34,279 nt of DNA from Asterionella formosa (Eukaryota), in assembly GCA_002256025.1 (NCBI GenBank), contig NKIB01000255.1:1-34279 (forward strand). The letters are read 5' to 3'. Shown in pieces: positions 418-34,279 of the stretch; position 1 is the first letter of the stretch, and each line of letters begins with the position of its first letter. The position numbers and the translations under genes were made by a program. The notes beneath the pieces were generated by a model. It was not told the DNA's origin. It saw only the letters and a list, made by a program, of their open reading frames with translations, and made no database searches.

Positions 418-2707
418 TAACTGGTTTTAATTTTTCAATATCTACATACTGTTGTAACACGCACTGTCCGTCCACTTGTATCTTCAGATCAATACCGTGC
501 CAGAATTAAAATGACCAACAAGTAGACACATAGCAGAGGCCTACAGGAAAATACAACTTGGGTTTAATTATACCAATTACCGTGGTGGATTCGAAAGGAT
601 AATGACCTCGTACCCCCAATTATTTACCTATACTATACACTATTAAGCAATTAATTCTAGCAGAACTACCGGTACCGGCATACTGATACTGGGGTTGTGA
701 CGTATGTATGTACGATATCCTATGCATATATACAGGTATGTGTACACAATGGTTGATCAGACATGCATATGAAACACAGTACGGTACAGGTATTTAATTG
801 AATACACTAGTTACGACACATACGTATTCATATTGAAGTACATGGTTGAAGACGTACGCATGTAAACCTACATCAAGTGGTTATCTACATACGATGGTAC
901 ATACATAAATCCATTGGAGAATATTTATAAACAAGGAACGGCTATAATAGTCACACATTAGTAGAATAAAGCATTTGGTTATCGTTTTTCTCTGTGCCCG
1001 GCAAGATTTGGATTTGTCGTGATTCAATCAGTTGCAGTTTATATCGTGATCGGTTTATCCTTTACTACCGGTACCAGGGTACCGGTATTCTTTCGGAAGC
1101 ACACTACCTATTATTCTTGTGCATATACCGGTACACGTATAGAAAAGGCGATGCCAGCTCAATAGAGCAAACGTTAAAATATCCATGTTTCGCAATTTCG
1201 CGTCGACAGCAACCTTTGGTCCGTAATAAGTACGTAAGTATTTACTCGCTATATAAATCTGAATAATTCCTTCGTGACTATAACGAATTAACTTCGACAC
1301 GACTATAATTAACATATCTTGCAAACTAAGTTCAAACCGTGCGTTTACTCCGTTTAGCGGTTACAGTTCAAAAGTCGTCACAGGGGTGGCTTACAGTTTT
1401 TATTAACTGGTACCTGGTACCCAGTACCAGGTACCCTGGTAGTTACTTGGAGGACATGATTGGGAATCTGTCCATCTGTTCCATCATAGCTGCACCTTAG
1501 TATATACGTCGTCATCGTTGGTGAGAACAAATTCGATGACGAGGTTACCAGTATGCTACCAGGTACCTGTTACCTAGTACCAGGTACTTCAACACATAGT
1601 ATATAAACGTACAATGCTGAGTGTGTTGTGTAAATACATACGGGTAATATGTAGAAAGCAAATCAAGAATTAGTGTTGTCAATGCCACATCAATTGTCGC
1701 AGGTACATAGTCTACCTGTATGTAGAACCGACGACGCGTTTCCATCTGTTCACACTTAATTAACACCACATACAGATCACTTATAAATCATTTCAAGCAT
1801 TGTATGGGACACCAATCAAAAACGAATTGACAACAACCATCGTTGCCTAAAATTGCTTGCATCAAACTGTCGGTACTGTATTCAGCTACAGAAAGGCGTA
1901 AGGTGAACTACTCTGAAAGGTGCATTATCGATTGCAACGAGTGGAGAAAGTCTTTGCTTGCAAATAATCACTTGGTGAGTGAGTCAGACGATGCCTGGCA
2001 ACAAGTGGTGTGGCGCCACATCGAGTGATTCGTTGTGATTTTAACGTTTTCAGTATTCGTCTCTGGTTTCACATGCTTCATTCTGCCCCTGTGGTCTTCT
2101 CATCTCGCGATGTTTCATCTGTGCTTTGTGAATGTCATCACGGGAACGGTCATGGTACGCGCCTGTTTCGCAATGATACGATTGTCAGGGATCCATACCT
2201 TTTACTGCATCCATGCTGGTGGCAAAAATCTCCACGGCGTTTTTACAAGAGCCAAAGGCTTTGCAGCTTTAGGTATTGTACGCAAAGTCAACTATCAAAG
2301 TTATTTTGCTAAACTCGTTCGTCACTTATTGGTTTGCTCGGATTCTTTTTCAATCCCACTTGCCTTCCTTTTTGAGAGCACGGACGAGAATCCAATGAAT
2401 TCGCGACTAGCCTCTCCATTTCACATTCGTTATCGGAACCATCACTCTCGCCAATGCACTCAAGGTATATACCTGCCTTTTCTCGGAGTACATAAGTTGT
2501 GACCATGGTTCAATCTTGTTACCGACTCAGTTAACTGCCACATGCATATTTGCGTAGATTTACGTACTGGACTAACTACGCGCCTCAATTTGAATTGAGG
2601 CGGGAGCCTATAATGCTCATCCACGCAACATATGGCCGGTACCGGGGCAAAAAATTGCCTTCTCATTTTCCGAATTTCGCCTTCTCACGTAATTGTTCTT
2701 TTTATTC

Positions 2708-3865
2708 ATGGATTCTCCGAAACAAAAGGAAATGGACGAACAGAATCCAACCGATCAGGACTCCATGATGGTGCTTCAGGCTCTCCTTAATATTCGAAGA
2801 GACACTATAGGATCGAGTGTGACTGTCCCTTGTAGTCCAGTGATGATGACACCTGATCGCCTTGGTGTTCCCAATCCACTGGCGGTTGGAAGCATGAGCA
2901 ATGCCGTTCCTTCGTATGAAGAAATGGCAAGGCACGGTTTCTCTCCAGATGCTTGCGACCACAATAGTAGTGCCAGCAATATTTTCGAATCAGAGCCATT
3001 TCTCGAGGACATTCGGCGATCCAAGATCAACGATGCATTGCGCTCCAAACCGCAACGTGGACGCAAGCGCGATGAGTTAAGCGCGGAGGAACGAATGGAG
3101 CTGACCAGAACTAGAAACCGTGAGCACGCTAAGAGTACCAGGTAAGCTCACCGTGTTTGATTGATGAGTCGACTGGTCGTTCGATCGACGAATGTTGATT
3201 CTGGTCCGACGAACAGTTGTTCTTCGAAAACGCCTCTGACCTCTTTGATTCCCTGCCTCTCTTCCTTTGTCTCCAGAGTTCGGAAAAAAGTAAGATACCA
3301 AGAGCTTCTTGATCAAGAGCAGCGGTTTGAAGACTTTAAGCAAGCAGAGGCGCTTCGAGCCAAGCGCATCGAATCCTTTCAGAGTTACCTCATGATTCGC
3401 CAAGGCATGCTTCGCGCACGACTGGGGGTTTCTAATGGCTCAAACGAGAAACCTCTCTCTGATGTTCTTGCTGAAGGTTTCAGTTTGGAAGGTCAAAGTA
3501 TCCATCATCTGGACACCACTCTTGTGGAACAGCTCAGATCTCACGGCAATTATTACGCCAACGTGTGTTACCTTGTCCAAGAGAATGCCATTGCTATCAA
3601 TCAAGATGGGACTGGCTTTGCAGAAGTTATTGTTTTGACCGATGATGTTCCATTTATCACTGCATTCACGAAGTTTCAGTTCCGAACGGGATGTCCGAAA
3701 CTAGCTTCCATGTGTTGGTGTCCAATCCGTACAGCTCCACGTGAATCGCTCAGTTGCCAGAAGTCTTATCCAAGTGTGGTATCTTTGGACCCAACTTTTT
3801 CTAACAGTGTCAATCACGCTGATTTTGAAGACAGCACTGGTCTTGGCATGCCTCTAAATGATTGA
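2708..3865 (+). CDS. bZIP transcription factor, 2 exons (2708-3141, 3277-3865), ~340 aa
   Basis: Splicing the GT-AG intron joins ORF 2693-3145 to ORF 3161-3865 in frame. This gives the basic region ERMELTRTRNREHAKSTR|VRKKVRYQEL (N-x7-R bZIP signature). The start could be the ATG at 2708 or 2732. Confidence 0.88.
3142..3276 (+). other. Spliceosomal intron of the bZIP gene (135 nt)
   Basis: Donor AG|GTAAGC, a pyrimidine tract CTCTCTTCCTTTGTCTC, and acceptor CAG at 3274-3276. Removal restores the bZIP basic region. Confidence 0.85.
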
Positions 3866-4204
3866 CGATACGGATGTGCTGAATTACTTCAGAGAGTGGG
3901 GTCACGGATTGACTTGAAACTCTCGGATTGTTTCGTGTTCTATGAAGGCAAGAGCGTCTACACCGTAAGTGGTGTTTGTGAATTGACCTAGTACTTATTG
4001 TTTTTATTTTCTGAGAAAAAATTGGCAGAAATAACACTCCTGGATTGTCTATGGGGACAACCAAAGTTTGCGAATTCATTTGAGATCATTAAAGGGATTT
4101 CGCATGAAAGGTAATGTTCATTTTGTACAGGGAAGTAGAGGGTATACATTTAATAGAGTTATTTCATTCTTAACCAACTACTGCGGTGTTGAGCAACAGT
4201 ACCC

Positions 4205-5164
4205 TCATGTGATCATAGTTGCTGTCATAGTAGGACAATCTAAAGCCACATGTCCCTTTTCCAGACAAAGGTGACAATGCTCGTGGTCTAAGATACACCC
4301 GTCGTCCTTTTTCTTGCAACCATCCTTATAATAATTGTGGTATCGACAGATCAGATTGTTGTCAGCTAGCGAAAAAGAACATGGAGCACCCAAAGCATGT
4401 TTAGGGAGTGTAGCCTTGGTCGAGATGGACTGCAGTTTAGTTTCGAACCATCCTTCCTCTTCCAATTTTCCAGTTTCCTTGTTAATCAGTCCTGCCTCAA
4501 GTTTGCACTCGGCCACCAATTCTCGACTCTTTACCACGACCAGTTGAGGCTGAAAGCTTTGATAAGTCCATGCAATTGCTTTCACCACCGAGTCCCAACT
4601 CCGGTTCCCTCCAATGTCGATGAAAACATGAGTCGGTTCCCCCAATTTCTCAATAATAGCATTTCTCGTTTGTATGGGAGACACTAGGCAATCCAATTTG
4701 GCTGTTCTGTCAGCAAATTCACTTCCAACAAGAGACTGACATTTCGCGATGATCTCGGACGACGTGTCAATGCCAAACCAATTCTTGGTTCGCCGGAGCA
4801 CAATTTTGGAGCATTCTCCCGTAGAACATCCAATCTCTAATACTTTGTTATCGCCGGTAAGCTGAGACCAGGCGAGGTTGCGATAAGGAATCGTTTCTGG
4901 TGTCAACAACAGGAGCGGAGCTGTTTGGGAATCAAAGACTTGCAATAGGCGTTTCCGATCGAATAGCTTTTGATTTCCTCCTTCTAGTTCCACCAAAATT
5001 CTCCCGTTTTCTGATTCACTGATGAATTTGGCTACTTCACCGTTCTCTTTGGCTGATTTCGGCCGAATAAACACATTGGAGTGAAGTCTTGGCTCCTGGG
5101 CTGGAAAGAGGCGCCACTCTGCCGAGATCGGACTGCGCTTTCTTTTTTTAAGCTCAGCTGACAT
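4205..5164 (-). CDS. Class I SAM-dependent methyltransferase-like protein with C-terminal CCCH and CCHC zinc fingers (~319 aa)
   Basis: Motif I VLEIGCSTG and motif II WFGIDTS. The C-terminus has C-x9-C-x6-C-x3-H followed by CHLCLEKGHVALDC (C-x2-C-x4-H-x4-C). The likely start is MSAELKKRKR (NLS-like) at 5164, although the ORF is open up to 5269. Confidence 0.75.
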   Translation of the reverse strand: MSAELKKRKRSPISAEWRLFPAQEPRLHSNVFIRPKSAKENGEVAKFISESENGRILVELEGGNQKLFDRKRLLQVFDSQTAPLLLLTPETIPYRNLAWSQLTGDNKVLEIGCSTGECSKIVLRRTKNWFGIDTSSEIIAKCQSLVGSEFADRTAKLDCLVSPIQTRNAIIEKLGEPTHVFIDIGGNRSWDSVVKAIAWTYQSFQPQLVVVKSRELVAECKLEAGLINKETGKLEEEGWFETKLQSISTKATLPKHALGAPCSFSLADNNLICRYHNYYKDGCKKKDDGCILDHEHCHLCLEKGHVALDCPTMTATMIT

Positions 5165-5799
5165 GATAGGACAGTAGTCGGATACAGTTAGTGGCCGAAC
5201 ATAAACAACAGATGAAGATATTGATCGCGGAGGAGACTTCGTGCGTAATCCGAATAATACTGTCACCATGGTCTACCCAGATGGTGACAGTACCAGGTTA
5301 CCAGGTACTTGTGTGCGTTGGAAGGTGATGCAGTAAAATTAAATCATAATTTCATTAGGCATACCGGTACCGGTAAATAAAAATATATACAGGTACAGGG
5401 TATCTGCCGTTGCCGTACATAATATAATTGTACATGTTGGCAGCAACCATCGTTTTTGGTATGAATTGCTCATGACTACATACGGTACCAGGTACCAGGT
5501 ACCTGGTACTGGTAGTACGACGACCTGTCTTACTAACTGTGTCTCATTGGCTGATTGCCTACATACCGGTACGCGATTCTGTGGTTGATTCAACCAGTCT
5601 AAAATTTTAAATGCCGGTAGACTACCGGTACTGCACATAACTCAATAAAGGGTACTTCGGTACACCCTTCTAAACTCCTACCACGGGTATTACCAGGTAC
5701 CAGGTTCGTTTGACTGCTATAAAAATACTAAATATTTTTACCGCCCATGAGATATGTTTGCAGCCTTCTCAAATAATCCTCCAATTTCAATCTATTCAC

Positions 5800-7611
5800 A
5801 TGAATCTCGAACTTCTCGATCCATTTCGCCGTCAGGTCCCTGATCGGATCGACTCAACGCTTCAGACGCCAAACGCCATGCATAAGGCGTTGACTCCAAA
5901 AGAAATGGAAATAGATCCGGAATGGAAAGCGGCATATCATATCTCATTCAATAGAAGGGGCACATACCTTGCTGTTGGACACGCCACTGGAAGTGTCGTT
6001 GTTCATGATTTTATGTCGAGGACCACAAGTGCTGTTTACACCACTGATTTAACAAACGATATGTATTTTCATCGTGCCATACCAGGGGACGGCAGTTCCA
6101 GTCCAGAGACGGAAACACCGCAACACACTTACCAGAACGGAGTTACCAGTGTCACTTGGTCTCGAAGATCACGGACAATATTGGCTGGCAGCGTGGGAGA
6201 TTCCGCTGTGCGATTAATTGATTGTACGCACCCTTTTGGACCTGAAATGGCCTCCATACTAGGAGCAGAGTCAAGAAGGGAAGAAGATACCATTAATCCA
6301 AAGCAGGAAAAGAAGCACAAGGACGACAAACTCGAGCAAACTACAGGAGTCGCTGAAGTTTCAAAAACTCTCTTTTTCAAATCTAATCCACAGCCATTAC
6401 ACTACCAACGAGTTCCGCGGTTTTTGTCAACAAGCACTAAAATCAATGCATCACTATCCCGTCCACCAGTATCGTCTTTGATTAGTATTGACGAACACCA
6501 GAAATACATTCGCAAAAGTAAACGAGAGGATTTGGATGCTGGCTTGAAGGTCCCCTTGAGGTTCCCAATGTTAGTCTTTCAATTACCCGATTTATTGGCA
6601 GGGTCGCTCCAGGTGCACCCTAAAGATACCACTACTGGACTTGCCATTCTTCAAGATGGATCACTTGTTGTGTTTCGAGCACCTCAGACAGCATGGGAGC
6701 TATACGAAGAAATCGATGAAGAGTCCATTGTCAGAATTGTTCCGCTTTTTAAATCCGAAGGAGGAGACAGCACCAAGTTTACATGTGCGGCGTGGTCACA
6801 TTCTGGCAAAGAGGTCTTTGCCTGTACGAAATCAGGCGACATGCTTGTGTTGGATGTTGCAGATTTCATCCTTTATTTGGGATCCACAGCGAATTGTGTA
6901 CCGAAGGTCAAGCCAATCTTCCGTTTAAGTATGGGCGCCATGGCATGGCACATACTAGTGTCTCGAAATGGTAAATACATTGTTCTAAACTGTGCTGATG
7001 CAGCACTACGAGTGTACTCCGCCGATGATGTGTGCGCATTTAAATCAGAGGAACTTAAACCAAAAATATTTCAGGACCTTGTTTCAAAGGTGCCATTTGT
7101 ATGCTGTGACTTTTCTGGTGATGCAGAATATTTGGTTGGTGGATGCAACGGGCCAAATGAAAAATATGAACTGTATTTATGGAACACCTCGACTGGGGCT
7201 CTGATGGATCGATTGACTGGAGCCCAAGTCCAACTCTATAGCGCTGCTTGGCACCCCACAAGATCATTCTTGGCTGTTGCAACTTCTGATGGATTGGTCG
7301 ATATATGGGGACCTAGAATGGACTGGACAGCATTCGCACCTGATTTTCAAGCTCTGCCCATGAATGTCGAATATGTGGAGCGAGAGGATGAGTTTGACCT
7401 AGTTGAAGAACAAGACAGGGATGCAGGGGAAAAGGAAATGGAAGAGATTGTTGATGTTGAAACTGTTGATCCAGTGCCTGTTTTTGCAAGTGATAGTGAG
7501 AGCGAGTCCGAAGCCTTCACCTTTGCCACCATAATTCACTCCGTCATGATTGCAAATCGTGGTCGCCCATTGGCTAATTCATACAAGGTCAATAATGATG
7601 AAATGGAATAA
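5800..7611 (+). CDS. RBBP5: RBBP5/Swd1-like WD40 subunit of the COMPASS/Set1 H3K4 methyltransferase complex (~603 aa)
   Basis: N-terminus MNLELLDPF, WD40 blades (FNRRGTYLAVG, VTSVTWSRRS, CCDFSGDAEYL, AWHPTRSFLA) and the RBBP5 hallmark WTAFAPDFQALPMNVEYVEREDEFD...IVDV. Confidence 0.92.
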   Translation: MNLELLDPFRRQVPDRIDSTLQTPNAMHKALTPKEMEIDPEWKAAYHISFNRRGTYLAVGHATGSVVVHDFMSRTTSAVYTTDLTNDMYFHRAIPGDGSSSPETETPQHTYQNGVTSVTWSRRSRTILAGSVGDSAVRLIDCTHPFGPEMASILGAESRREEDTINPKQEKKHKDDKLEQTTGVAEVSKTLFFKSNPQPLHYQRVPRFLSTSTKINASLSRPPVSSLISIDEHQKYIRKSKREDLDAGLKVPLRFPMLVFQLPDLLAGSLQVHPKDTTTGLAILQDGSLVVFRAPQTAWELYEEIDEESIVRIVPLFKSEGGDSTKFTCAAWSHSGKEVFACTKSGDMLVLDVADFILYLGSTANCVPKVKPIFRLSMGAMAWHILVSRNGKYIVLNCADAALRVYSADDVCAFKSEELKPKIFQDLVSKVPFVCCDFSGDAEYLVGGCNGPNEKYELYLWNTSTGALMDRLTGAQVQLYSAAWHPTRSFLAVATSDGLVDIWGPRMDWTAFAPDFQALPMNVEYVEREDEFDLVEEQDRDAGEKEMEEIVDVETVDPVPVFASDSESESEAFTFATIIHSVMIANRGRPLANSYKVNNDEME

Positions 7612-8598
7612 GGGTGGATATTAGCATATCAAATTTTGTATCTTTTTGATTCTTTGTTCTGGGTGGCATGTTATGGAAATATACACATTAATCTATCTCG
7701 AACGATGTGTATATGATGGTAGGTTAGTGGATTCAACATTAGGATACAAAATATATATCCATTGTATCTATTTTTATACAGAAACCACCATTTAATTCCC
7801 GCAAATGGACACAATATCAATTTTGCGTGGCGAGTCTTCTGTGAGCATGGCCAGCAAATATTCTTCAGTCCACTGAAGTCTTCTGCGTAAGCTGCCTCCG
7901 CTACATTATACCAATAGAATTATATACGGTAAACAGTCGACTAGTAGTTCTAGTTGCTGGATAGTAGCTATTGGACTAGTACCGGTACTGCATTTGAATG
8001 ATAAAATTATTTAGTGAGTAAAACTGATGGATAGATTTTACGGAGTACCTGGAACTACTAAATGTAACAATATCCTCGTCAGGTGGGCAAGAGTTCAAAT
8101 GTTGGTTGTTGTGTTTTGGTAGGAATTTTTTCTACCTGTGGTTGACTCAGATGATAGCAGGAGGAGTGTACATGATTGAATTGTTGATGCACATGTGTTT
8201 CTGCAGGTGGGTTGGTGTGGTTAATGCTACTAAATGGAATAATGTTACTGGAATGCACAATGTGCTGTTGTCATTCCATGGTAGTTGATTTCGAAGATGT
8301 CATTGCTGTTGCTTGCAGCCCTTTTTTATGGTGGAATTTGAGTGATGGTTTGGGAGACATTTCCATTGCGGCTCTTGTTGGTTGTTGGATGAAGTGGGTG
8401 GTGATGTCAACCTGTTGATTGGCGATTTCGTGTCATTTTCCAATAGCTGCATCAAATTACAGACAACTCTTCGATTTCTTTCTGTAAAATAGTTGCACTC
8501 ATGGCATAATGTTAACATACTTCGAGGTCAACAGCTCTTTGGAAAAGCGGAGCAAAACATCCCAGTTAGCAGTAGAGTATTTGTCGCTTGAATCAGGC

Positions 8599-8694
8599 TC
8601 ATCATGGTGACAATCCTTTGTATATACCGGTATATATGTAGCATCATCGTGATGACAATCCTTTGTATATATATATGTAACATCATCGTCATGA
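8599..8694 (+). repeat. Two-copy tandem duplication (~40-45 bp unit)
   Basis: CATCRTGRTGACAATCCTTTG(TA)n-TGTARCAT occurs twice. Copy 1 carries an extra CCGGTA inside its TA run. Confidence 0.85.
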
Positions 8695-8797
8695 AACTAC
8701 CGGTACTTCTACATGTTGTGTCTACGTCAAAGCATACCGATCTAAAAGTCCGAAAAAAAAATTGTTACTTCGCGATTTTCAACTTCTTCATCTCTCA

Positions 8798-8884
8798 GCC
8801 AATCCTGGTCACATATCAGACTTAAATTAAGCTCGCCATGTATATCTACTTAAGCTTTAAATTTGAAATGTGACCAGGATCGGC
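8798..8884. repeat. Imperfect inverted repeat (29-bp arms, 29-bp spacer)
   Basis: GCCAATCCTGGTCACATATCAGACTTAAA (8798-8826) matches the reverse complement of 8856-8884 (GCCGATCCTGGTCACATTTCAAATTTAAA) at 25/29 positions. Confidence 0.75.
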
Positions 8885-9473
8885 AGGGAAATAAGAAAGA
8901 ACATCGATTTCCGATGAACCCCTCATTAATCTAGCTTTAAACAATGAAAAGAACTTAGAATTCTTTTTACTGAAAAATCAATTGCCCTTTTAGTCGCATC
9001 CAGTTTAAAACACAATATGTTGCATTGCTGTGATACAGTCGTTAATCATATTACGGTACGTAAAACTATAGTATATACCGGTACTCCGTGATGATGATGT
9101 AGATGTACCCTGTGGTAGACCAGGTACATGGTACCGTGCCGGTATTTTAGTACCCGGGACGGAGTACCGGTTTACAGTCCATATGTAGGAGCAGACAACA
9201 TACTGGTCCCGGTAAGTTTATTATTGCTTGTCCATCTACCAGTGTGTAGCGGTCGTCCCGGTAGGCATTTTCGTCATGGCTGAACACCAACCATCAGCCA
9301 TAACGCACACCGTGCGTTTTAGTTAGAAATACGATTGGCTACGGTACCGGTAAATTAATAAAGATGTTTGACACGGACATCTATATGTAGGGACGCACAG
9401 TCGATCCCTTTCGTCGATCATCTTGATCGTGATTTGGTTTTGGTTTTCGAATTCCTCAGTTACGTCAACAGGC

Positions 9474-10217
9474 ATGCCATCGTTGCAACGGTCAATTGAA
9501 CAGCCAATCGATCTCGTCCTTATAGGCTCTATTCCTTCCTGTTCGTCTGCAGAGATGGACACAAGAGTACAAAAGGCCCATGCAGCGACTCGGCGAGGCA
9601 TAATTTTCAACGAAGACGTTTATGTTCAAGAGACCCACCACATTAATGATTTTAGTGATGACGAAGTCTTTCACTACTGGTTTGACAAGCGAGACTATCA
9701 ACAAATGAAGATAGACTTTGCACCAACAGTTAGACTTCTTTCAATTCGACAGCTTCCGGTTGACTCCGACGAACATTGCGGTCGCGGCCTTGAATATCGC
9801 ACTCGCGAAGGTGCCCAGCGGAGAAAATTAAATAAGTTGACTGCCTTGTGTGCAGTTCTAGACGAGCAGGAACGACAGCGTCTCGAAGGCGAATTGAGCG
9901 ACCACAAACTTTCTAAAGTCTACATCCGTGCCAGTGCAAGCTGTCGGCAAATGTCGCATCTTATGGCACTACAGGATGAAGAGGATGTACATGGTGTTTT
10001 GTTGATCGAAGCCGGTGGTGACGATTCCGATGAAGGTCGACTTAGTGATCACATACGATCAAGAAATGCGGGCACTGCCAGCAGGCCGGAAAGCCATGAA
10101 GAAATTCCAAGATACACTCGCAGCACGAGCCACGACAGCCCAAAGTCTAACCGTATCCGAGGTTTCTTCAACAGGCATAAAGATAAGCCCGAGCTGACTG
10201 GCGCCACCTCGCCGTAA
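9474..10217 (+). CDS. Uncharacterised diatom-type protein (RVxF-like / CxRGLE family), paralogue A, ~247 aa
   Basis: Intact ORF from ATG 9474. The core RRGIIFNEDVYVQETHHINDFSDDE...W...CGRGLEYRTREGA...VLDEQERQ aligns by eye with the ORF at 17125. Confidence 0.85.
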   Translation: MPSLQRSIEQPIDLVLIGSIPSCSSAEMDTRVQKAHAATRRGIIFNEDVYVQETHHINDFSDDEVFHYWFDKRDYQQMKIDFAPTVRLLSIRQLPVDSDEHCGRGLEYRTREGAQRRKLNKLTALCAVLDEQERQRLEGELSDHKLSKVYIRASASCRQMSHLMALQDEEDVHGVLLIEAGGDDSDEGRLSDHIRSRNAGTASRPESHEEIPRYTRSTSHDSPKSNRIRGFFNRHKDKPELTGATSP

Positions 10218-10751
10218 CGGTTACAACAGGATAACTCCAATTCCCAAATCTAAAACTCACTATCGCGATGCAGGGGTGATCTAGCTCACAATTCCCGGAA
10301 GATATTTGATGGGAGAGATGATTCTCCAATGACTGTTGAGGATGATCAATTTAGAAATTTGATTAATATTTTTTCAAGGCATCAGCGACTTTGCAGTCAA
10401 TTCCAGAAATTGCTTTGTGAAATATGTTCCTATTTTCAAAAGGAGATTGATTCAAGTCAAGCATCGAATTAATGGAATGAGTTCTTGACCGAAGCAAATG
10501 TGTGGGTTATGCCAATTGATGTAAGCTATGCAATTCTATCATTTATTTCTTGTGTTTCAAGTGATCTGGAAAGATGGATTTATGTGTGTTGATCCAGTTC
10601 CAATAATCCAGAAGTATAATATCAGCTCTCTTAAAACACACCTCTATGCACCTGTAATATTCATTCAATTCCCAGATCATCATGAGGGAGCCATGAAGCA
10701 GATTTATCAGCCCAACAAATAATATATTAAACCATCTTTCAAACTTTTGAT

Positions 10752-10791
10752 GTCACTGCTTATAGTTTTAGGTCACTGCTTATAGTTTTAG
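10752..10791 (+). repeat. Perfect 20-bp tandem duplication
   Basis: GTCACTGCTTATAGTTTTAG x2. Confidence 0.9.
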
Positions 10792-22631: not shown

Positions 22632-23889
22632 AAATGTGCTATTGGCAACTTCAATTTTCGTTGTCAACATTAGTGCTATTACAGTAATTTGTATGATTGT
22701 ATTATCTGTGTCATGTTGAATATATGCACCTGATAGCAAAGCATCATTCTCGTTTTTCGTGGAGAAATTCGCTATTTTCGTCAGAGGAGTACTACTAGCA
22801 ATATCCTAAATTACTTAAGGATTTTTATTTCCATTGAAACCTGGCCTATCTCATCTGGCAGAGATGAGATGAATCATGGGGAAAGAGTTAAAACTGGGAA
22901 GGTGTGCATAAAATGTGTGATACTGGACCTTCCTGGTACTGGCCAGATGGTGTGGTATTCCACATGCTGTTGTTACCGGGGTACTACCTGTTATTTGGTA
23001 TGCCAGCAAGTTGCAGTAATTTTGCTTTTTCGTGTACACATTCCCAAAACCAACAAATATTTCCAGACTTGGCAGCTGTTTGGAAATAAAAGTATGAAAC
23101 TTCTAGCAGCTTGCTACGGCATTCGCAGGCCGTATAAAGACGACTGGACCAAATTAGATAAATTCAGATGATAAGGGGCAAAACAAGTTCTGACAAATTG
23201 TAATTTTGGGTTAGATTATTTAGGGACTATGTTGGTTTAAGCAAATTGAATCTACTTTAAGCAAAAAAATCTTAAATGAAACAAAGCTGCCTACATCATT
23301 ATGGAAGGAAATTGAGTTACTACCACCGGTACTAATCTGAGTACCGGGACACTTCTGTCGGCACATGCATCATGGCTTGCCAAGCAAGTAGCAGTATCAA
23401 CCCGGTTTCATATGTGTGTAGCGGTACATAGGAATGGATTGCTGCACATCACTATGACTACAGGGCATTACCAGCAGTTTTGATTACATCATATACCGGA
23501 GCAAATACTTCACATTTGCTGGCTTCTACAAGGACTACATACAAATTTCCCATTCGCAATCAATCAATTCTCAGTAGATAATATCCTTATTTCACATCTT
23601 TTGCTTCAATTATTCATGTTAATTCTGTAGTCGTTGTCTCGTTTGTTGTGTAGCTAGCTACTGTAAAAGTGTCGTATCTGGCTGCTCCTCGTAGCATCGT
23701 TGTTTAAAGATTGCGCATCTCTAAATTAGATGAAAAAATGTGCCTGTGGCGACTTCAATTTTCGTTGTCAATGTTATTGCTATTAGAATTACTCTTTTAT
23801 GATTGTACTAACTTTGTCATGTTTGATTTATGTATCAAAAAAGAAAGTATTGCTCTTATTTTTCGTCGAGATATTTGCTATTTTCATCA
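22632..23889 (+). repeat. Diverged ~150-bp direct repeat pair (22632-22782 and 23737-23889)
   Basis: Both copies read AAATGTGC...TGGCRACTTCAATTTTCGTTGTCAA...TGCTATTA...TATGATTGTA...TGTCATGTT...TTTTTCGT.GAGA.ATT.GCTATTTTC.TCA. Confidence 0.75.
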
Positions 23890-24327
23890 TGGTCAACGCT
23901 GCAACGATATGACGATGAAGGATTCTCCCAGCCGCTTAGTACAACTACACAACTACCGGTGCGTATTCAGTATCATAGTTAAAGCTTCATTATGACTAAA
24001 TAGGTCATAGGTGACTGTGATGGCAGCAGCATTGAAATGATAACGTCGTCACAATAAGCAAAATTGCTACTTAAAGCAAACGCACTTTAAGCAAAACGAT
24101 CCTATACATTACTTAAGTAAACAAACGAGAAGCAAAACAGATTGGTCTCAATATTTAGGCTAAATCAGATTAAAGCTAAATAGATATAGGAACAACAAGC
24201 CGGTCGGGTTAGTTTATTTAATGGATGTCAAGAAGAGACTCATGTATTATTTTGGAATTGGAATCAATATCGCCAGTACAAAGTTGTACATGGAGCTAGA
24301 TAAAACAAAATTACCGCAACTTGCAGG
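23003..24327. mobile_element. Non-autonomous TIR element of the CCAGCAAGTTGCGGT family
   Basis: Left end CCAGCAAGTTGCAGTAATTTTG and right end CAAAATTACCGCAACTTGCAGG|TA (20/22 match). No coding capacity seen. The left flank is TG rather than TA. Confidence 0.6.
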
Positions 24328-24899
24328 TATTACCGGTTGTTAATGATGTGCATTGCTGACGAGCTGTATTGTTGTCGTGCAGAAAGTACTTTCTGTACCA
24401 TAACTCATCGTTTGCTGTTTTTGGCTGTTTCTGTAGTGCCTGTAAAGCCCCTGGTTCTATCATAAATACCTTACCTTAGAGCATCGCCACCGCATCGACC
24501 AAATACCAAGCCAATTGAAGTTGCGGGTCATTACACGTCATGATGCGTTGTGTTGATCGAAAAAGCGAAAATATTTTAGCCACTGCATCGACCAAGACCA
24601 AATATGCTTTGGTCTTGGTCAAGGATGACCCCCTTATTGACGAATATCAGGTGTTTGGTCGATTAGATTCCGATAGGGGGTAGTAGAATAAAAGAAGGAT
24701 TTCTAGTATTGTTTTAGATTGTGACTCGCGCCGGCAACCTAACGTTTATATTAGTTTAATGAGTGCATAGTATATAATTACAGTACATTCACTATAGTCT
24801 CTTCATGTAGCACTCTACAGGCCAACAATGTGATCTTGGTGTGGTGTATAGTGCATCATATTGAGTCAACATCATAAAACAACAATCATCATTGTCAGG

Positions 24900-25697
24900 A
24901 TGGGTTCCGGTGTCATGTGGGAGAAGGAAGAGGACAAAGCACTCTCTCGGGCCTGGGTAGCTGCAAGTAAAGACGCAATCACTGGGACTGGTCAGAAAGC
25001 AAGCAAGTTTTAGAGCAGGGTATTTGAGATTTATGTTGAGCTTATCCCAGATGGGAAGGATCGCACCTCAACAGCGTGCACTGCTCGATGGGGAACAATC
25101 AATCAAGAGGCGACAAAGTTTTGCGGCCTCTATTCACAGGTTTCGTCCATTGCTAAGTCAGGATGGAAAGACGACAACTACCTTGAAGAATCCAGGGAAC
25201 TATTTAAATTAGAGGGAAAAGGAAGGAAACTGGGTAGAGAATTCTTGTTCGAAGGATGTTGGCGAATTTTGAAGGATGCCCCAAAGTGGAAGGGTGGGTG
25301 TGGATATTTCCGAGATCAGCAGCAAATCGCAAAGAAGAGTCCTGAGTTACTAGATGTGCGTCCTATGGGGACGGAAGCAGCAAAAGATAGAAAGCTACTC
25401 GCAAATGCTCAGCTTGTCATTGAACAAAAACAAGTGTAGATGTTGGAAAGAAAGGTGAAAGATACAACATGATGAATTTTTGTTCAAGATTTTCAGAGGA
25501 AGCCAAAAGGTGGTTTGCTTGCTGTGAAGGTTCAAGAAGCTATGGAGGACAGTTCAAAACCATCACGCAAAAAGCCAAGACCAATTCTTTGCTTCTTGGA
25601 GTCAGGCAGTTCAGTTGAAATCGATATTTCAACTTCTCATTCATCATCTACTGATGATGCGGTTTCGATTCTAGAGACTGGACCACAAGAGTATTAA
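24900..25697 (+). pseudogene. Harbinger Myb/SANT-like DNA-binding protein, disrupted
   Basis: Reads MGSGVMWEKEEDKALSRAWVAASKDAITGTGQKASKF*SRV...ARWGTINQEATKFCG...SGW...FLFEGCWRILKDAPKW. There is an in-frame TAG at 25011 (expected Trp) and further stops from 25437. Confidence 0.85.
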
Positions 25698-25804
25698 ACT
25701 AGTTTGATTCTAATGACAATACATTACACTATTCATTTCATTATTGCCAATCTAGAACTTATTTACCGACTTAAAATAATAATCTAGAATCAAGTTATTA
25801 TCTA

Positions 25805-27065
25805 CTATTTGTTCTCATGTTGAATCCACAAGTGCTCAATCATATTGTTACGCAATTGAAAGTGCTCACCTTCACTCATGTTGTTCATTCTAATATTCTT
25901 GAAATCAAGAAATGTAAGGGAATTGTTGTGATTGAAGTTGTCAACCAAAAAATCCTGAATATTGTCAAATAGATCATAGTCATTTGTTTTTTCAGTCTCC
26001 CACTCATCCTCTTTGATCATGTTGTGCAAAATGATGCATGCAACAATTTCGCTGATCATAGCACCCACTGACCAAAGTGGAAGTGCAAGGATCCTCTACC
26101 TGGCCTGTAGAACTCCAAATGCTTGCTCGACGTCCTTGTGCTGGGTCTCCTGAGGACGCATCGAGAAATAACTCCGCTTTGGACCTTGTGGCTCTGAAAT
26201 TTTTTTGACAAAATTTATGCCGATTTCTTGAGTAGATTACGTCAACCAAATAATACCCCAGATTTTGTTGTTGGCTGTTGAAGGCAAAGTGTACTTTTGG
26301 AGTCCTTCCAGCTGACAAATCATGGAAAAACGGAGAACGATCCAAAATATTAAGATCATTGTTTGTTGCCCCATGCATTCCAAACCATACATGCCAGAAC
26401 CAAAGTCTGCAATCAACCGCAGCTTCCAAAACACAAAACAATAGTCCGCCACTCATTCTTTTCCTTGATATGCTCCTCTGTGTGCATTGGGACAGTCTTT
26501 CCATGACATCCAATGAACCAAGAAGCCCCAACCAACCCTTTCCTTCATGCAAATGTAGAATCATCTCAAGGTCCTCTTTCGTCGGAGCTCTAAGATTCTT
26601 TTTACCATACCTGTTGATTATTGCGTTACAGAAGTGTTCTTGACTCTGACATCGCTCCTTGTTAAATCGTCCAACTGATCAGCTGAGCCGATGTTCCATA
26701 GGCTAACATGCAGAGTGCTGAGGTACGTTTTTGGTGTGGCGAAAATCCCATTAAACCCAGTCCAAGGCATCCTTCTTCTGAGAAAAGTAAGAATCCACAT
26801 CAACCAAATCATCAAGAATCTTCTCAAACAATGACCGTCTCATCCGGAAGCGCCTCCTGAACATTGCTTGCTGACAAGTAAATCGGATTTTCACCAAAAT
26901 AATCCTTTTTCAAAAGCTTGACATAGTCTGTCCGAAAACAATTGTGATTGGAGGCCTTTCCCGCGACCTTTGATCCTCCTCCCTTGTTTCTTTCTTGCTT
27001 TGCTTCCGCATATTGCAGAAGTGGAAGAATTGATTGTCATCTGACAAGTCACTGTCATTGCTCAT
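25805..27065 (-). pseudogene. Harbinger DDE transposase (HARBI1/DDE_Tnp_4-like), multiply frameshifted
   Basis: Motifs across frames: FRRRFRMRR, GWLGLLGSLD, LEAAVDCRLWFWHVWFG...NNDLNILDRSP, GYYLVDVIY, KDVEQAFGVLQAR and ACIILHNMI. Confidence 0.92.
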
Positions 27066-27974
27066 TTTCGCTGTGTATAAATAAAATCCATATTTATTGG
27101 TAATAAAGAAGCCACAATTCTCTACGAACAATATTCAAGTACTTAGTCATGGTTTTTTGATGGGCAGTACCAGATAAGCGTATTGCTAGCTGTGTCAGAA
27201 TAAGGTATGTATGCGGCTACTTCATGAATTAAAACCGATACACACGTAACTACAGTCTACCTTAATTTCTCTAGGCTAAAAATTTATGCGCGAGATTTGA
27301 CTAATACTGTATATTAGGATCTGGTCGATGCGGTGGTGGGGGAAAAAGATTGAAAATTTCGACTACCGGTAAATGTACTGATAAAAAATTCTCGACCAAG
27401 TGACGTGTATTGATATTTTCAACTGCAATACTGGGTACCGGTAATATGCTTTGGCATTCGGTCGATGCGGTGGCGATGCTCTTGGGAGTACTTTCCAATT
27501 GCATTCAACGCCTTTTTTTCTTCGGTACACCCCTGGTACCAGGTACCTTGTACTTCTAGTATATCGTACTGTATGTCATATGTTCCACTTTTGCTAACGG
27601 AGACTTTAGCGTCCGGTACTTGGTACTGCCTACGATGCTCTGACTAGCAGGTACTTAACAACCTGGTACCGTACCTGGCACTATGGTTCCAGGGTTCCAA
27701 TTACTGGTACCTGGTACCTTGTACTAGTTACTGACGTACAAAGAAGATTCGTTGGTCATGACCATTAGCTACGGCAAGAACACAACGGAGTCTCCGACCA
27801 GAACAACGGGTGCTACCAGGCATCGGCTTATCTATATACAGCCCACGACCGTCAGCCGTACCTATTGTAGCGGCCATCCATACAGGTAGTTCGTTTAATC
27901 CTGGGGACCAGTTACCGGTTGGCGATTGCATCATCCATTTTTACGGACAAAACTAGGAGGAGAAGCGAAGCGAG

Positions 27975-28003
27975 AGGAAAGGAAAGGAAAGGAAAGGAAA
28001 GGG
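27975..28003 (+). repeat. (GGAAA)5 purine microsatellite just upstream of the kinase ATG
   Basis: GGAAAGGAAAGGAAAGGAAAGGAAAGGG. Confidence 0.85.
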
Positions 28004-28031
28004 AAAAAAGCAAAGCAAGCAACATCCGATC

Positions 28032-30002
28032 ATGAACAACGATCTCGAATCGACGACCCCGCCACAGCTTGTGGCAACGTCACGCCCAGAGGAATCTCAA
28101 AGGCTAGCTCCCAAAATCATGGCTATGGAAGATGACAGTGAACAGAATCTTCATATTCCGAATATTTTATCACATGCGGTGGTCACCTTTCAACAGGAGG
28201 ACGACATCATTCCTGGACCGAATCCCAGCATAGCACGATCCAACGTTGAGCACCTTGACATTTCCTTGACGGAACACAACATTAAGGGAGCGGGTATTCT
28301 TGCTAGCGCGACGGATTTAAGACTTTCCCAGGAGGAATTTGCGGCGGGTTGCAACCTGTTGCAAGCAGCTGCCAGGGGCGACTTGGTTGAAATGAAGAAT
28401 CTACTCACGAGCCGAACTCACATCAACTTTAGAGACTACGATCGCCGGACGGCTCTACATGTGGCGGCCAGTGAAGGCCACTTGAATGTGGTGGAATTTT
28501 TGGTGGAGCACGGGGCCAAGCTGCACCGCAGTGATCGATGGGGTGGAAGTCCACTTGATGATGCCCACCGCCATCAACAAACTGAGGTAGCCCAGTTCCT
28601 TCGTGCTCACAAAGCAACCACCGGTTCCTTGAACAAAGTGACCAATTTAATTACTGCCGCGGCTACTGGCGATTTGGAAGAAGTGCAATCGCTGGCAGAG
28701 ACTTTGACAAGCCCTGCAAAATTAAATGCAGGAGACTACGATAAGCGAACTGCTCTGCACTTGGCTGCTGGTGAAGGACACGTTAACATCGTGGAGTTCC
28801 TGTGCAAGTCTGGAGCAGATGCTAATGCAGAGGATCGATGGGGCGGGCGACCGCTCGACGACGCTCTCAACTCCAAGCAGCTGGCTTGCGTTGAAATTCT
28901 CCGAAAGTATGGAGCTCAGAGCGGTAGTTCTCACGATCCACCATCCGAGGTACGTTCTTCTGATGTCGATCCCTCCATGCTAACTGATTTTTCCGAAATC
29001 GAAATGATTGAGCGTATTGGAGCGGGAGCCTTTGGGGAAATTTACAAGTGCCGTTGGCGAGGAACATTAGTTGCTGCCAAGATAATCAAGACTGCAAAGA
29101 TTCGAAGGGAATGGTTGGCAAAGCATGCAGTCTCAATGATGAGCATGTATCCTTATTCTGATGATGCAGAAAGGTTGCTGGATGAAGTAGATGATATGAA
29201 AGAAGAAGGCTCAGATTTTAGAGATCAGGCTTTGGCTGATTTTCGGCAAGAAATATCTGTTCTAAGGGGCTTACGGCATCCCAACATCTGTTTGCTATTA
29301 GCGTACTCCACAACTGATGCAAAGGAAGTTATGATTTCAGAGCTCATGAAATGCTCTCTCTTGGATGTCTTTCAAGCACACATGGTACATGGCACAAAAA
29401 TGCCAGAAAGGACGAAGATTACCTATGCCCAACAACTGGCGCTAGGAATGAATTATTTACACAAGTGTAAACCACCAATCATTCACCGGGATTTAAAACC
29501 TGCTAATCTGTTGATTGACCATTCGGGTGTACTCAAGATTTCTGACTTTGGCCTGGCCAAGATTCGCCCAGATCCAACAAAAGAGGACAATGATAAGTAT
29601 CGCCTCACGGGAGAAACTGGTTCGTATCGATTTATGGCCCCCGAAGTCTTTCGACATGAACACTACAACGAGACGGTGGACGTGTACTCATATGGCATGA
29701 TTTTTTACTATCTCTTGTTGGGTAAGCCACCGTGGCCCAAATGCAGTGGGATGGATGCCGTCCGAAAGGCTGCTTTGGAAGCTGATCGGCCTCTTGTGCC
29801 CAGAGATTTGGATATCCGGCTTTCAAGTCTACTGCAGGACTGTTGGGACGAAAATAGTCGCAGTCGACCAACGTTCGCGGACATTTTGGAGGTTCTGGAG
29901 GCATACTCGGAGTTTAGGTTTCACCAGAAACGCAACACTATTGGTGCCACTGCCGAACTTCCGGTGATGACTGAGCAGCGCTGTGCGTGCATTGTCATGT
30001 GA
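28032..30002 (+). CDS. Ankyrin-repeat TKL/Raf-like protein kinase (plant ILK/VIK-like architecture) with C-terminal CaaX box, 656 aa
   Basis: Two ankyrin blocks (DYDxRTALHxAAxEGH...DRWGxxPLDDA), then kinase motifs GAGAFG, VAAK, HRDLKPAN, DFG, GSYRFMAPE and DVYSYG. The protein ends CACIVM*. Confidence 0.95.
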   Translation: MNNDLESTTPPQLVATSRPEESQRLAPKIMAMEDDSEQNLHIPNILSHAVVTFQQEDDIIPGPNPSIARSNVEHLDISLTEHNIKGAGILASATDLRLSQEEFAAGCNLLQAAARGDLVEMKNLLTSRTHINFRDYDRRTALHVAASEGHLNVVEFLVEHGAKLHRSDRWGGSPLDDAHRHQQTEVAQFLRAHKATTGSLNKVTNLITAAATGDLEEVQSLAETLTSPAKLNAGDYDKRTALHLAAGEGHVNIVEFLCKSGADANAEDRWGGRPLDDALNSKQLACVEILRKYGAQSGSSHDPPSEVRSSDVDPSMLTDFSEIEMIERIGAGAFGEIYKCRWRGTLVAAKIIKTAKIRREWLAKHAVSMMSMYPYSDDAERLLDEVDDMKEEGSDFRDQALADFRQEISVLRGLRHPNICLLLAYSTTDAKEVMISELMKCSLLDVFQAHMVHGTKMPERTKITYAQQLALGMNYLHKCKPPIIHRDLKPANLLIDHSGVLKISDFGLAKIRPDPTKEDNDKYRLTGETGSYRFMAPEVFRHEHYNETVDVYSYGMIFYYLLLGKPPWPKCSGMDAVRKAALEADRPLVPRDLDIRLSSLLQDCWDENSRSRPTFADILEVLEAYSEFRFHQKRNTIGATAELPVMTEQRCACIVM

Positions 30003-30299
30003 AGTTTGAATTTGAAATAACTGCAATTCATAGAGGTTTCGGCCACAAAACATTAACATATTATATACATTACGATTGCACCTTTGGCTTCATGTCAGTG
30101 CTGAGACAACATGGAAGTGCATGGTCTATCTACAAATAAACAGTTCATCTCAATTGAAATTCAATCAATCTTTAAACTATAGTCATAATGTTCATTTGAA
30201 CAAAACGTTACAAGAAGAGTAATTTCCATAGTTTTTCACTTAGCATACCAGGTACCGGTGGTTACAATTTGGACACCATAACATGGGTTCCACCATAAC

Positions 30300-30830: not shown

Positions 30831-32145
30831 GAATACAATTTTTGCACAAAAGTGTTGGGAAATGCACAAACTGTCAGCCAGAGGAATTAGTGTTTAAATT
30901 TTGATGTCGAAATATTTAGTTGCTGCAACAAGGATACAATGTCTATATGTAACTTTGAAATGACCCAATCAAGATTCCATAGGATCATGCTACATGACAT
31001 GAAGTACCACCACCTGGTACATACATGAAAGTCAGTACAAAAAAGTGGTTGAGGTATTTCTTGCATTTTGAGCTGTTGTGCTCTTTCCAAGATTTCTATT
31101 GCTCAAGTTTTCTCATCTATTTGTACTCTAGATAGAAATAATTATCTAATTGAAGTTATCATGCTAGTTACTGCGGACTCAACGATGTCTTGTTTTAGTT
31201 TGTTGCCTCAATTCTAATTGCGTGAAGGACAAGCAGTGTAAACATATATGCATCACATTTCAGTCGTCATGCTGTCCCCATTATGCCAACACATAATACC
31301 GGTATACTGATACACAACGTGGTTGTTTGTCCCATATCTTACTATGTCCTACTTATGTAGCTAGTACCAGTAACTGGTTGGGAGTACCTGGTAACAGTAA
31401 ATATCTTGTCAATGTCACAACCAGAGACTGAGCAGGGCTTTTGTTCAAAAGTAAGTTACATACCAGTATGTTATGCTGGTATGTACAAAGCCTGTTAAGA
31501 TATATGTAAGAAATTTGAATGAGTAGGAGAATAGCGATATCTACTGGGCATTTATACAACAACAAAAATATAAATATTCAGGTCATAAGAAGTATTTTTA
31601 TTTGTAATTCGTAAAATTGACTGATGATGGGTTTGGGAAGCAGACAAAAGCAATCAAACAAAGTTTTCCAATGATACCACTCAAATTTATTATTGCTCAA
31701 ATTTCGGCGCATGAGCACAGTTGAGGCACCATTAGAACCACAGCAACCTGTGTTTTCAACGCGAATTGTAACAATTACATTGGCTCTACTCTGTAAAAAG
31801 TTATATAGCTAGAACCAATTTTAGTCATACATGCTGGTGTGCTTGCTATTGCCGCTATGTATGAATCTATGTATGTACATTGTATATATTGTTAGCTTGT
31901 TTGTGTAATATATACTTCCTGTTTAAATTGAGTCACTGTGGCCATTAACAATTAATCTGCTCTCATGAAATCTAAACAGAAATAGACATTACAAACTTAC
32001 ATAGAAAATTGATATAAATATTGATTGATTTGCTAGATATTTAGTCAGAAAAAGCAATCATGCATTCCCTGGATTAACTCATTGTGCATTTTCTATCACT
32101 TGTTTCGAACAACAGGAACGCCCCTTCCATGCCATTGCCTCAGCG

Positions 32146-32358
32146 ATGATTCACCCCAGTTACAGCATCTTGCACAAATTGTACCAGCTTCCTCCTGAAA
32201 CTAACCCTTGCTTCATTTCCCACACACCCAGCATGGATCGCCAATCCACCACTGACTCTGTCACCCTGGCCCGTCGATGGGGGACTTGTCTGGAGGTAGC
32301 ATCTAAAACGCGCGCTTCATGCTCAACTCAAAGCGGTTACCGATTTACCGAAAATTAG
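32146..32358 (+). mobile_element. Second copia pol fragment (region preceding integrase)
   Basis: SVTLARRWGTCLEVASKT...STQSGYR resembles the LARRWGIGLETAKxT..TTQxGxR block of diatom copia polyproteins. It is collinear with, and on the same strand as, the 30300-30830 fragment. Confidence 0.6.
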
Positions 32359-32364
32359 GAACAA

Positions 32365-32864
32365 CACATGATCCGGAATCGCCTCCTGAAATGTGCAGGA
32401 GAGTAGGTCAGGTTTTCTCCTAAGTAGTCGTCCTTCAACAGGTTGTCGTACTCTGCGCAAAAATGATTCATGTTAGTGGCCTTGCTTGCAAACCTTGGAA
32501 CCTCCTCCCCTACTTTTTCTTTTGCTTCATTGCATATTTCTCACTTCTTTGTTGACAATGCATCTTGCAGAAATGGTAGAGTCAATCATCATCTGATGAG
32601 TTGTTATTGTTCCTAGCTATCTACCGGTACATAGTGCCCATCGCTATATCAACAATACACATTTTAAGACATTTTAGCTCTATTTCTATTTGCTAAACAT
32701 TCGGGCGCCAGATTCAGGCAGCTACTTTAGGTTTTGGTCAATGCAGTGGGAAAAGATATGAAAATTTCAACTATTGAATAAAAAAATTCTCAACCCAAGT
32801 GATGTGTTTTGATATTTTCAACTGCAATTGGTTTTGGTATTTGGTCGATGCGGTGGAGATGCTC
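32365..32864 (-). mobile_element. Truncated second PIF/Harbinger copy (TIR plus 5' end of transposase)
   Basis: TIR TTGGTATTTGGTCGATGCGGTGGAGATGCTC|TTA at 32834-32864. The subterminal DNA is homologous to 27320-27430. The minus strand encodes AEYDNLLKDDYLGENLTYSPAHFRRRFRI, homologous to the N-terminus of the first transposase. Confidence 0.85.
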
Positions 32865-34279
32865 TTATCGTTCAAAAATCAGGTATTTGGTTGATCAGAC
32901 TCTGGCTGTAGCCAAATTAAAGAAGCATTTTTATCGGTTTAGATTATGGCTCTCACCGGCACCCTAAAACCTTTATGGTTTAATTGGTGCACAAAAGCAT
33001 ACAATACATTTACCATACTTGATTGATAAAACCAAATAATAAACTACATATATATTAATCATTTTTATTGCGCATTAGTACTGGTCTATTTCTAGGCGGT
33101 TCATCTTCATTGTGCTCCATGGCCCATATAAGATGGGGCAGTGGTTGTGGTCACTCCCTTGTATTTGGAGATGATACTGCGATTCTTTGTACATATAATA
33201 CACAAGAGATCTGAGGTTGTGAGGTTTGATTCCTGCAATTTTTTTGAGAAGCAATTGTTGGGTTCGACTCCCACACTCCTCCTTACCATCCTGTACAGTC
33301 TTGCCTGGTGTGCCAGAAATAGTGGGTTGCCCCCCTACAAGGAGCTTGTGTCGCCTTCCTAGGCAGTTGGAGTTTCCCCTGATGCTATGGCTACTAAGAC
33401 AATCACCTTTTGCAAAAGGTGGTTAGGTACTCACCTATGCTAACAAAACCAGGGAAGCACAGATCTTGTTGGCAGGTAGCACAACAATGACAGACTTGCC
33501 TAGAAATAGGGGAGTATGAATGGGCTATAAAACATACTAACATTTACATCGTAAAGTAATGTGCGCTAGCTATCCTGTAGGACTAATAAATGTTACTTAG
33601 GTCTAGTAATAGGGAAATCTCTTCATTGTCCTGGGCCCCCTTAAGTAAAATCAGTCAAATTCAGTTATGGCAGTATACATTGCTTGGGGGGCTTGGATAA
33701 TGAATGGTACCTGGTACCTACCTGGTACTGGCCATCAAGCCAAGGATCTGACAATCAGAAATGGGCGCATTGGCAATGTCAACCTCCATTTTGACCAAAA
33801 TGATGATGGAAAATCAATGCATTACCATTGCTTGTTATCTATATACTTGTACCCAATGTATAAATAAATGAATGTTAAATTGGTTTCGATTAACTCATTA
33901 GATGCTAAATATTGAATTACAAAAACAGAGTATATAATCACATCTATGTAACTCATTAAAAACGGATTTTTTCGAGTAAGCCGACCCTCACGTAGAAATG
34001 TGGTATGTTGGTTACATAATCCTTCATATGCGAACAGTAAAGACACTGGTGGTGCCGGCAAATCCTCGATGCAACTGTTACTAGACAGAGGGAGTACCTG
34101 GTAGTACTCCTTTAAGCAAGAGGAGCAATGCGAGCTCCGCATTGACGGGCTGTGTTGAAATGGTCCGTACTCCTTCCCGCGGGTTGGGTCTCTCTTCACG
34201 TAGACTCTTACGTGATCGTAGTACTACCTAGTACCACTCACTTTCTCTCTTGTCTCTGCTTCTAGCCTTCCTGCTAGAT

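Follow-up and report, generated by a model that had tools for sequence, protein, structure and literature searches.

The DNA analysed here is contig NKIB01000255.1 of the Asterionella formosa assembly GCA_002256025.1, a stretch of 34,279 nucleotides that we refer to as the window and that is nuclear DNA of a pennate diatom. Sequencing runs containing it are mostly lake and freshwater metagenomes, and the best named relatives of its ankyrin-kinase open reading frame (ORF; 27957-30002), which also has a 100% match on a 10.9-kb contig, come from Amphora, Seminavis and Nitzschia, with ~55-60% identity. The window is crowded with two short palindromes, TACCGGTA and TACCWGGTA (W being A or T), in which a CCGG, CCAGG or CCTGG interior is framed by two TA dinucleotides, and it carries two copies of a family of inverted-repeat elements with tips of matching sequence. 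An earlier note on this DNA had proposed that the palindromes are stacked excision footprints of such a transposon. The palindromic sites, the two elements, and the places where a motif appears as an insertion are as follows.

667-674: lone TACCGGTA, then CCGG
1066-1133: chain TA-CCGG-TA-CCAGGG-TA-CCGG-TA, plus a lone TACCGGTA at 1126
1404-1441: chain with a 7-bp period, made of CTGG, CCTGG, CCCAG, CCAGG and CCCTGG units between TAs, in a spliced 5' exon (RNA contig)
1546-1586: chain of CCAG, CCAGG, CC, G and CCAGG units, in the same 5' exon (1333-1973)
5291-5705: six clusters between diverging genes (5291-5307, 5362-5375, 5486-5514, 5564, 5623, 5691-5705)
7980-9352: seven scattered intergenic sites (7980, 8625, 8698, 9076, 9119, 9166, 9345)
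8596-8682, plus strand: 45-nt tandem duplication, copy A TATATA-CCGG-TATATATG, copy B TATATATATATG
13373-13380: TACCGGTA; its second TA flanks an inverted-repeat element on the left
13381-16177, plus strand: element 1, non-autonomous, ends CCAGCAAGTTGCGG...CCGTAACTTGCTGG, TA on both sides, inverted arms of ~400 nt
13800-13807: TACCGGTA at the inner edge of the left arm of element 1; right-arm counterpart TACCTGGTA
15561-15569: TACCTGGTA at the inner edge of the right arm of element 1
16229-16251: chain CCTGG, CCTGG, CCAGG, 52 nt past the right end of element 1
18320-18334: chain of CCAG and CCTGG units
23003-24327, plus strand: element 2, same family; left end CCAGCAAGTTGCAG preceded by TA-TG, right end CGCAACTTGCAGG, then TA
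27364-27443: two motif-bearing insertions in a Harbinger-type end region, not in the other two copies of that end
27537-27552 and 27702-27723: chains upstream of the ankyrin-kinase gene
30246-30259: TACCAGGTACCGGTG, a mixed unit pair
31297-32629: scattered sites 31297, 31365, 31385, 31461 and 32622
33708-34103: chain CCTGG-CC-CCTGG at 33708-33727 and a lone TACCTGGTA at 34095

The crowding of non-coding DNA described in the earlier note is borne out by comparison with 100 dinucleotide-preserving shuffles of the window: TACCGGTA occurs 22 times (shuffle mean 0.22, maximum 2) and TACCWGGTA 23 times (mean 0.15, maximum 2), the latter divided between 12 CCAGG and 11 CCTGG units. All 12 example sites that it had named hold the motifs ascribed to them (1066-1087, 1411-1441, 1546-1586, 5291-5307, 5362-5375, 5486-5514, 5691-5705, 16229-16251, 18320-18334, 27537-27552, 27702-27723 and 33708-33727). 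The most enriched 6-, 7- and 8-mers of the window are the words of TACCGGTA and TACCWGGTA and their sub-words, ACCGGT and ACCWGGT cores number 64, and when every word TA-X-TA is scanned, with X from 2 to 6 bases long, the only outliers are CCGG, CCAGG and CCTGG (P = 3e-29, 7e-20 and 8e-18, respectively). The motifs are also rare in exons, as had been claimed: 42 of the 45 full motifs lie outside long ORFs and three inside, where the exon proxy is a long-ORF mask rather than a curated annotation and takes up 41.5% of the window (binomial P = 1.8e-7). One of those three (3136) serves as a splice donor, as the RNA joint 3137->3273 shows. An Rfam search gave no matches. The words TACCAGTA/TACTGGTA, with six occurrences in the window, and TACAGGTA/TACCTGTA were considered as one-end scars of 4 bases, but one-base deletions or CpG transitions fit them equally and they are not diagnostic.

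The framing by TA belongs to the motif and ends with it. Outside ORFs, CCGG has TA on both sides in 22 of 57 cases and on one side in 20 of 57, against 0 of 19 and 2 of 19 inside ORFs, and CCWGG has TA on both sides in 20 of 50 non-ORF cases versus 3 of 23 in ORFs. The flanks of CCGG are informative at the T (62%) and the A (59%), and the next position outward is near background; two copies of TA bracket the retained bases, as in a transposon footprint. Exact copies of TACCGGTA are about as numerous as the 27 copies found over all 24 of its one-mismatch variants, roughly half of which we estimate to be expected by chance, and this near-parity would fit recent insertion better than a degenerate binding site. 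TACCGGTA stands alone in 19 of its 22 occurrences, while CCWGG units, as read by eye, are often chained through shared TAs. A TA-run context is found at 7 of 44 flanks of lone sites against ~3.7 expected, which is only suggestive.

The earlier note had allowed that the arrays might be an artefact of assembly, and this is answered by the contigs of three other DNA studies (X2, X7 and X8), which were compared with positions 1-20000 of the window (12 of 91 indels, 40 of 445 substitutions and 15 of 266 joints being listed). These contigs span the arrays or terminate at them, with stops at the edges 5484, 5514 and 16253, and those that leave array edges (30 and 41 in X2, 28 in X7, and 16, 13 and 21 in X8) agree only 0.36-0.44 with each other; from 16253, 41 X2 and 21 X8 contigs continue into unrelated sequence. 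Bins that hold arrays are 10-40 times as deep as single-copy bins in all three DNA runs (single-copy depths ~105, 5 and 5). Because the arrays recur in three independent studies with unrelated flanks, they are neither an assembly artefact nor a piece of a larger repeat, and their depth, which is not a count, suggests that similar arrays lie at hundreds of unrelated loci.

The motif is specific to the A. formosa lineage. As a lineage control, a metagenome scan with the kinase at 27957-30002 recovered 12 loci with 30-62% identity, none of them from the source species. Across 12 other contigs (75.7 kb, for the most part of other diatoms) TACCWGGTA is absent, and TACCGGTA occurs 4 times versus 1.12 expected, with two of the copies in one tandem repeat (P = 0.027, or 0.10 if that pair is counted once). 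No arrays were present in the viral contigs scanned; five viral-contig matches to the 17-nt element end had unrelated downstream sequence and no motif enrichment, and were set aside as chance matches.

At one place the motif can be seen as a discrete unit. The tandem duplication at 8596-8682 contains the only one of the 45 sites (8625) that has an empty-like paralogue in the window, and the best affine-gap pairwise alignment of its two copies has a single 6-nt gap, exactly CCGGTA, in a TA run; MAFFT set the same gap at the end of the duplication. Among the 12 of 91 contig indels listed, no allelic filled/empty pair was seen. The two motif-bearing insertions at 27364-27443 are evident when the Harbinger end at 27330-27560 is compared with its copies at 32730-32950 and 24400-24630 (reverse strand). 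We note that the PIF/Harbinger-type element at 24478-27482 has 32-nt inverted ends that are 94% complementary, flanks of TTA and TTG, and an ORF resembling NAM-associated proteins (25014-25439), with an extra end-region copy at 32655-32866.

The inverted-repeat family, which we denote by its end sequence CCWGCAAGTTGCGG, has tips of the form CC(A/T)G...C(A/T)GG. The termini of element 1 are inverted (CCAGCAAG...CTTGCTGG), and its terminal 28-mer recurs 100 nt inward. At its left junction GCTACCGGTA is followed directly by CCAGCAAG, such that the element occupies the second TA of a TACCGGTA, and the element end at 13381 does lie inside a motif, as had been noticed. Both of its junctions are present in X2, and no joint across 13381-16177, as would mark an empty site, is among the 15 of 266 listed. 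The arms are at 37-46 times single-copy depth (bin 13341-14007, three DNA runs) and the middle is single-copy and silent, and contigs carry miniature, internally deleted forms with joints 13431->16152 and 13731->15695. Element 2 has the tips CCAG on the left and CAGG on the right, with a TTACCGGTT 3 nt from the right end. An element with ends of the CC(A)...(T)GG type, as the earlier note had envisaged, is thus represented by two TA-flanked copies, with a TA target-site duplication flanking element 1 on either side and element 2 on the right, and the tip pairs CCAG/CTGG and CCAG/CAGG match the motif interiors CC+GG and CC(A/T)GG. A transcript-borne copy at another locus reads GTA followed by CCTGCAAG in an RNA contig.

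The TA flanks and the repeat structure suggest a Tc1/mariner-type family. Its members resemble the miniature Tc1/mariner elements of the Stowaway-like or inverted-repeat/direct-repeat (IR-DR) type in their TA flanks, terminal inverted repeats, inward terminal repeat, high copy number and internally deleted forms, and depart from that type in that the 63 window ORFs scanned include no related transposase and one transcript-borne copy lacks TA flanks. The four ORFs of element 1 that were scanned matched no Pfam family, and an autonomous partner may lie elsewhere in the genome. Its arms carry a motif at matching positions, TACCGGTA in one and TACCTGGTA in the other; with CCGG in one arm and CCTGG in the other, the two forms either interconvert or share a hotspot. 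Both arms also contain 20-nt and 12-nt tandem repeats (13610-13690 and 15685-15789, with units such as ACTATGACTTTCAGGAAAGG). The 91-nt segments at 13038-13128, just left of element 1, and at 24172-24262, near the right end of element 2, are 71% alike, and a decayed third copy may therefore abut element 1.

The account that we favor, while holding it somewhat short of an even chance, is that most of the motifs were left as scars when a TA-targeting cut-and-paste family with CCAG or CCTG ends repeatedly inserted and excised. An insertion would duplicate the target TA, element tip bases would stay on both flanks after excision, and end joining would retain them, converting TA to TA-CC+GG-TA or TA-CC(A/T)GG-TA. 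By analogy with Sleeping Beauty and mariner, the 3-base 3' overhangs of two CCA ends would not pair and their last base would be trimmed to give CCGG, and a CCA end and a CCT end could pair through A:T to give CCWGG. Every such scar would make a second TA, and re-insertion there, as at 13381, followed by excision would add a unit and so build a chain, to which tandem duplication may contribute extra units; element 1, if it excised in this way, would leave a chain of two units.

The footprint of Sleeping Beauty is TAC(A/T)GTA, and Tc1 leaves TA-framed scars. For Sleeping Beauty and mariner, part of the account in PMC7827188 describes 3-base 3' overhangs of tip sequence that are left on the donor flanks and end-joined into footprints. 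Read as footprints, the motifs of the window are like those of Sleeping Beauty, mariner and Tc1 in that TA is duplicated and a few tip bases are kept between the TAs. They differ in keeping 4 or 5 bases rather than 2 or 3, and in occurring by the tens per 34 kb, in chains, and as the top non-coding words. In rice, the portion of PMC4423477 that treats natural excisions describes 8 of 94 as 'perfect', the rest having deletions or filler. That study offers a comparable genome-wide record of scars, drawn from genome comparison, whereas the putative scars here are uniform.

Several observations weigh against an origin of the motifs by excision. With most rice excisions untidy, many uniform scars would be unusual. 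Scars of 2-3 bases between TAs, of the length that a 2- or 3-base stagger would leave, are not enriched, the enriched forms keeping 4-5 bases: the fully overlapped words TACCATA/TATGGTA, TACCTTA/TAAGGTA and TACCTA/TAGGTA occur 3, 4 and 12 times, respectively, at or below the composition estimate, and the 3+3 scar TACCWWGGTA does not occur in the window. Neither an excision event nor an empty donor site was seen in the window or contig data, the filled/empty pair at 8596-8682 is not polarisable (a precise loss between two TAs would look identical), and the Harbinger-end insertions are complex, of 12 and ~16 nt, and not single units. The 63 window ORFs scanned by Pfam, from 115 ORFs of at least 70 amino acids, contain no Tc1/mariner transposase domain and no DD(E/D) transposase with a paired-like DNA-binding domain. 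The left end of element 2, TA-TG-CCAG, departs from a plain TA flank, and another RNA-contig copy of the family is flanked by ...CATT and AACC..., with no TA. The matching motifs in the arms of element 1 imply that some copies travel inside elements. Perfect-unit chains have 5 links, versus 1.29 on average if TAs are chosen at random, and exceed what random re-insertion gives, such that an added target preference or slippage would be needed. Lastly, the repeated, untranscribed 2.7-kb stretch at 10668-13372 contains no motif and sites cluster near gene starts, a pattern that a regulatory role fits equally.

The footprint origin put forward in the earlier note accordingly survives in part: the matching tips, the element in a motif TA, the one CCGGTA pair, the two Harbinger-end insertions and the lack of information beyond TA speak for it, and the lack of any enrichment of short scars, among other points, speaks against it. 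Its idea that chains grow by re-insertion is likewise supported by the position of element 1 in the TA of a motif, and qualified by the surplus of links.

The main competing explanation, which we regard as a real though distinctly smaller chance, is that the motifs are binding sites for an abundant dimeric DNA-binding protein (a divergent bZIP, for example, or some general promoter factor), whose half-sites TACC and GGTA are abutted or one base apart and have been multiplied in the promoters of this lineage. AP-1 and CRE sites differ by one base. The near-exclusion of motifs from ORFs accords with this, and most genes have one within ~150 nt of their start. The ORFs of the window that Pfam recognises are the following.

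4205-5272, minus strand: methyltransferase-like ORF
5674-7611: WD40 protein
18731-19489: metacaspase
19907-22309, minus strand: PPR protein
26004-26678, minus strand: PIF/Harbinger transposase (Plant_tran, E = 2.9e-28)
27957-30002: ankyrin-kinase

The clusters at 5291-5705 are bracketed by two RNA contigs, one ending at 5293 and the next starting at 5809; the first is from a minus-strand gene, near whose start lies the site at 5291-5307, and the site at 5691-5705 precedes an ATG at 5799. Similarly, the site at 9345 precedes an RNA contig start at 9396, those at 16934 and 30246 precede gene starts at 16956 and 30282, and the motif-free 2.7-kb stretch is untranscribed. TACCGGTA is identical to M94, an 8-mer predicted as a promoter motif in another stramenopile, Phytophthora infestans, where it is found beside M93 (TACATGTA) and shares with it the form TA-NN-N'N'-TA, as given in the available text of PMC3597505; bZIPs of the same species are described in PMC11267843, within its main text, as binding diverse palindromes that lack an ACGT core. 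The faint excess of TACCGGTA in other diatom contigs also points this way. Against these, the motif is near-invariant, with 22 exact copies to 27 variants and no information outside its 8 bases; it appears as discrete insertions between paralogous copies; it is present in transposon arms and in the transcribed 5' exon at 1333-1973; and ~2 sites per kb of non-coding DNA is high for a single factor. The main text of PMC11267843 contains none of CCGGT, ACCGG, GGTAC and GTACC and so names no factor for the motif. M94 was rated 'high confidence' in a scheme that counts palindromy itself as a feature, and M94 and M93 were predicted from expression groups with modest enrichment, the available text of PMC3597505 noting no 9-mer or chains. 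Footprint and regulatory origins are not mutually exclusive.

It is unlikely, in our view, that the motifs are a self-propagating palindromic micro- or minisatellite that spreads without transposition, with GGTACC(W) units arising through tandem duplication, quasi-palindrome template switching or templated insertions at break repair. Tandem Repeats Finder does report arrays, with periods of 7 and 14; the surplus of chain links would follow from such growth; neighbouring units with A and then T form perfect 16-nt palindromes, as expected of template switching; and over the motif-rich region 4913-8569 the X7, X2 and X8 contigs differ by 30, 13 and 13 gapped letters, which are net length differences. 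Slippage, however, cannot seed lone copies, which make up most of TACCGGTA, and at 8625 the filled and empty copies differ by just one unit within a TA run. The central A or T, read by eye, is identical in only 5 of 10 neighbouring unit pairs, which argues against simple slippage; neighbours are thus not regularly identical, and new copies are not confined to the sides of old ones. The TA frame and the match to the element tips are also left unexplained. Least probable of all, and in our judgement quite improbable, is that the motif came first, either as a site into which the element prefers to insert or as a fragment that elements carry and disperse: one of the two elements lies in a motif TA, the other has TTACCGGTT close to its right end, and the arms of element 1 share a motif position, but with ~5% of non-coding TAs in motifs the estimated chance of one hit in two insertions is ~0.1 and hence weak evidence of preference, the unrelated flanks of the arrays imply that most copies were not carried by a larger element, and the origin of the motif is not explained.

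Full-text searches found no literature on a diatom motif of this kind. The excision scars known so far are rare and isolated events; if the footprint account is true, they would be here a major type of mutation, readable in the sequence, by which promoters are shaped and simple repeats seeded. The scars would then record where transposons have landed and provide a direct measure of long-term transposon traffic in a diatom, and a TA...TA palindrome that is over-represented in promoters might then be debris of mutation and not a binding site. If instead the regulatory account is right, the motif is a promoter element of unusual density and exactness, belonging to a group for which descriptions of promoters are scarce. 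A bolder extension, which we think possible but doubtful, is a 'footprint satellite', in which the uniform scars of one miniature transposon family have piled up until they are the commonest non-coding words, with hotspots near promoters growing into chains and some palindromes perhaps since co-opted as regulatory sites; the Phytophthora motifs TACATGTA and TACCGGTA could have arisen likewise.

Other features of the window are noted briefly. Splicing is confirmed by contigs of polyadenylated RNA, with joints 1973->2728 and 3137->3273. The gene with the coding sequence 2708-3865 has the 5' exon 1333-1973, which holds two motif chains, and a 754-nt intron; by eye, its protein has a basic region resembling that of bZIPs, which the second intron interrupts, and Pfam assigned no family to either exon alone. 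Positions 1-667 are of extremely high copy number (~800 times single-copy depth in X2, ~650 in X7 and ~490 in X8), with the window starting inside the repeat and opposite-strand joints connecting 1-3 to 58-60. At 8783-8899, a 29-nt spacer separates two 44-nt arms with 77% complementarity, perhaps a small hairpin element that belongs to a different family. The segment 10673-12006, at ~7 times single-copy depth, has no RNA cover and no motif, and includes a perfect 20-nt tandem repeat at 10752-10794. Finally, an X2 contig differs from the window by 94 letters and 54 gapped letters over 1385-2647 and by 52 letters, none gapped, over the adjoining 2654-5368, a pattern suggesting that over 1385-2647 the allele or strain is far more divergent.

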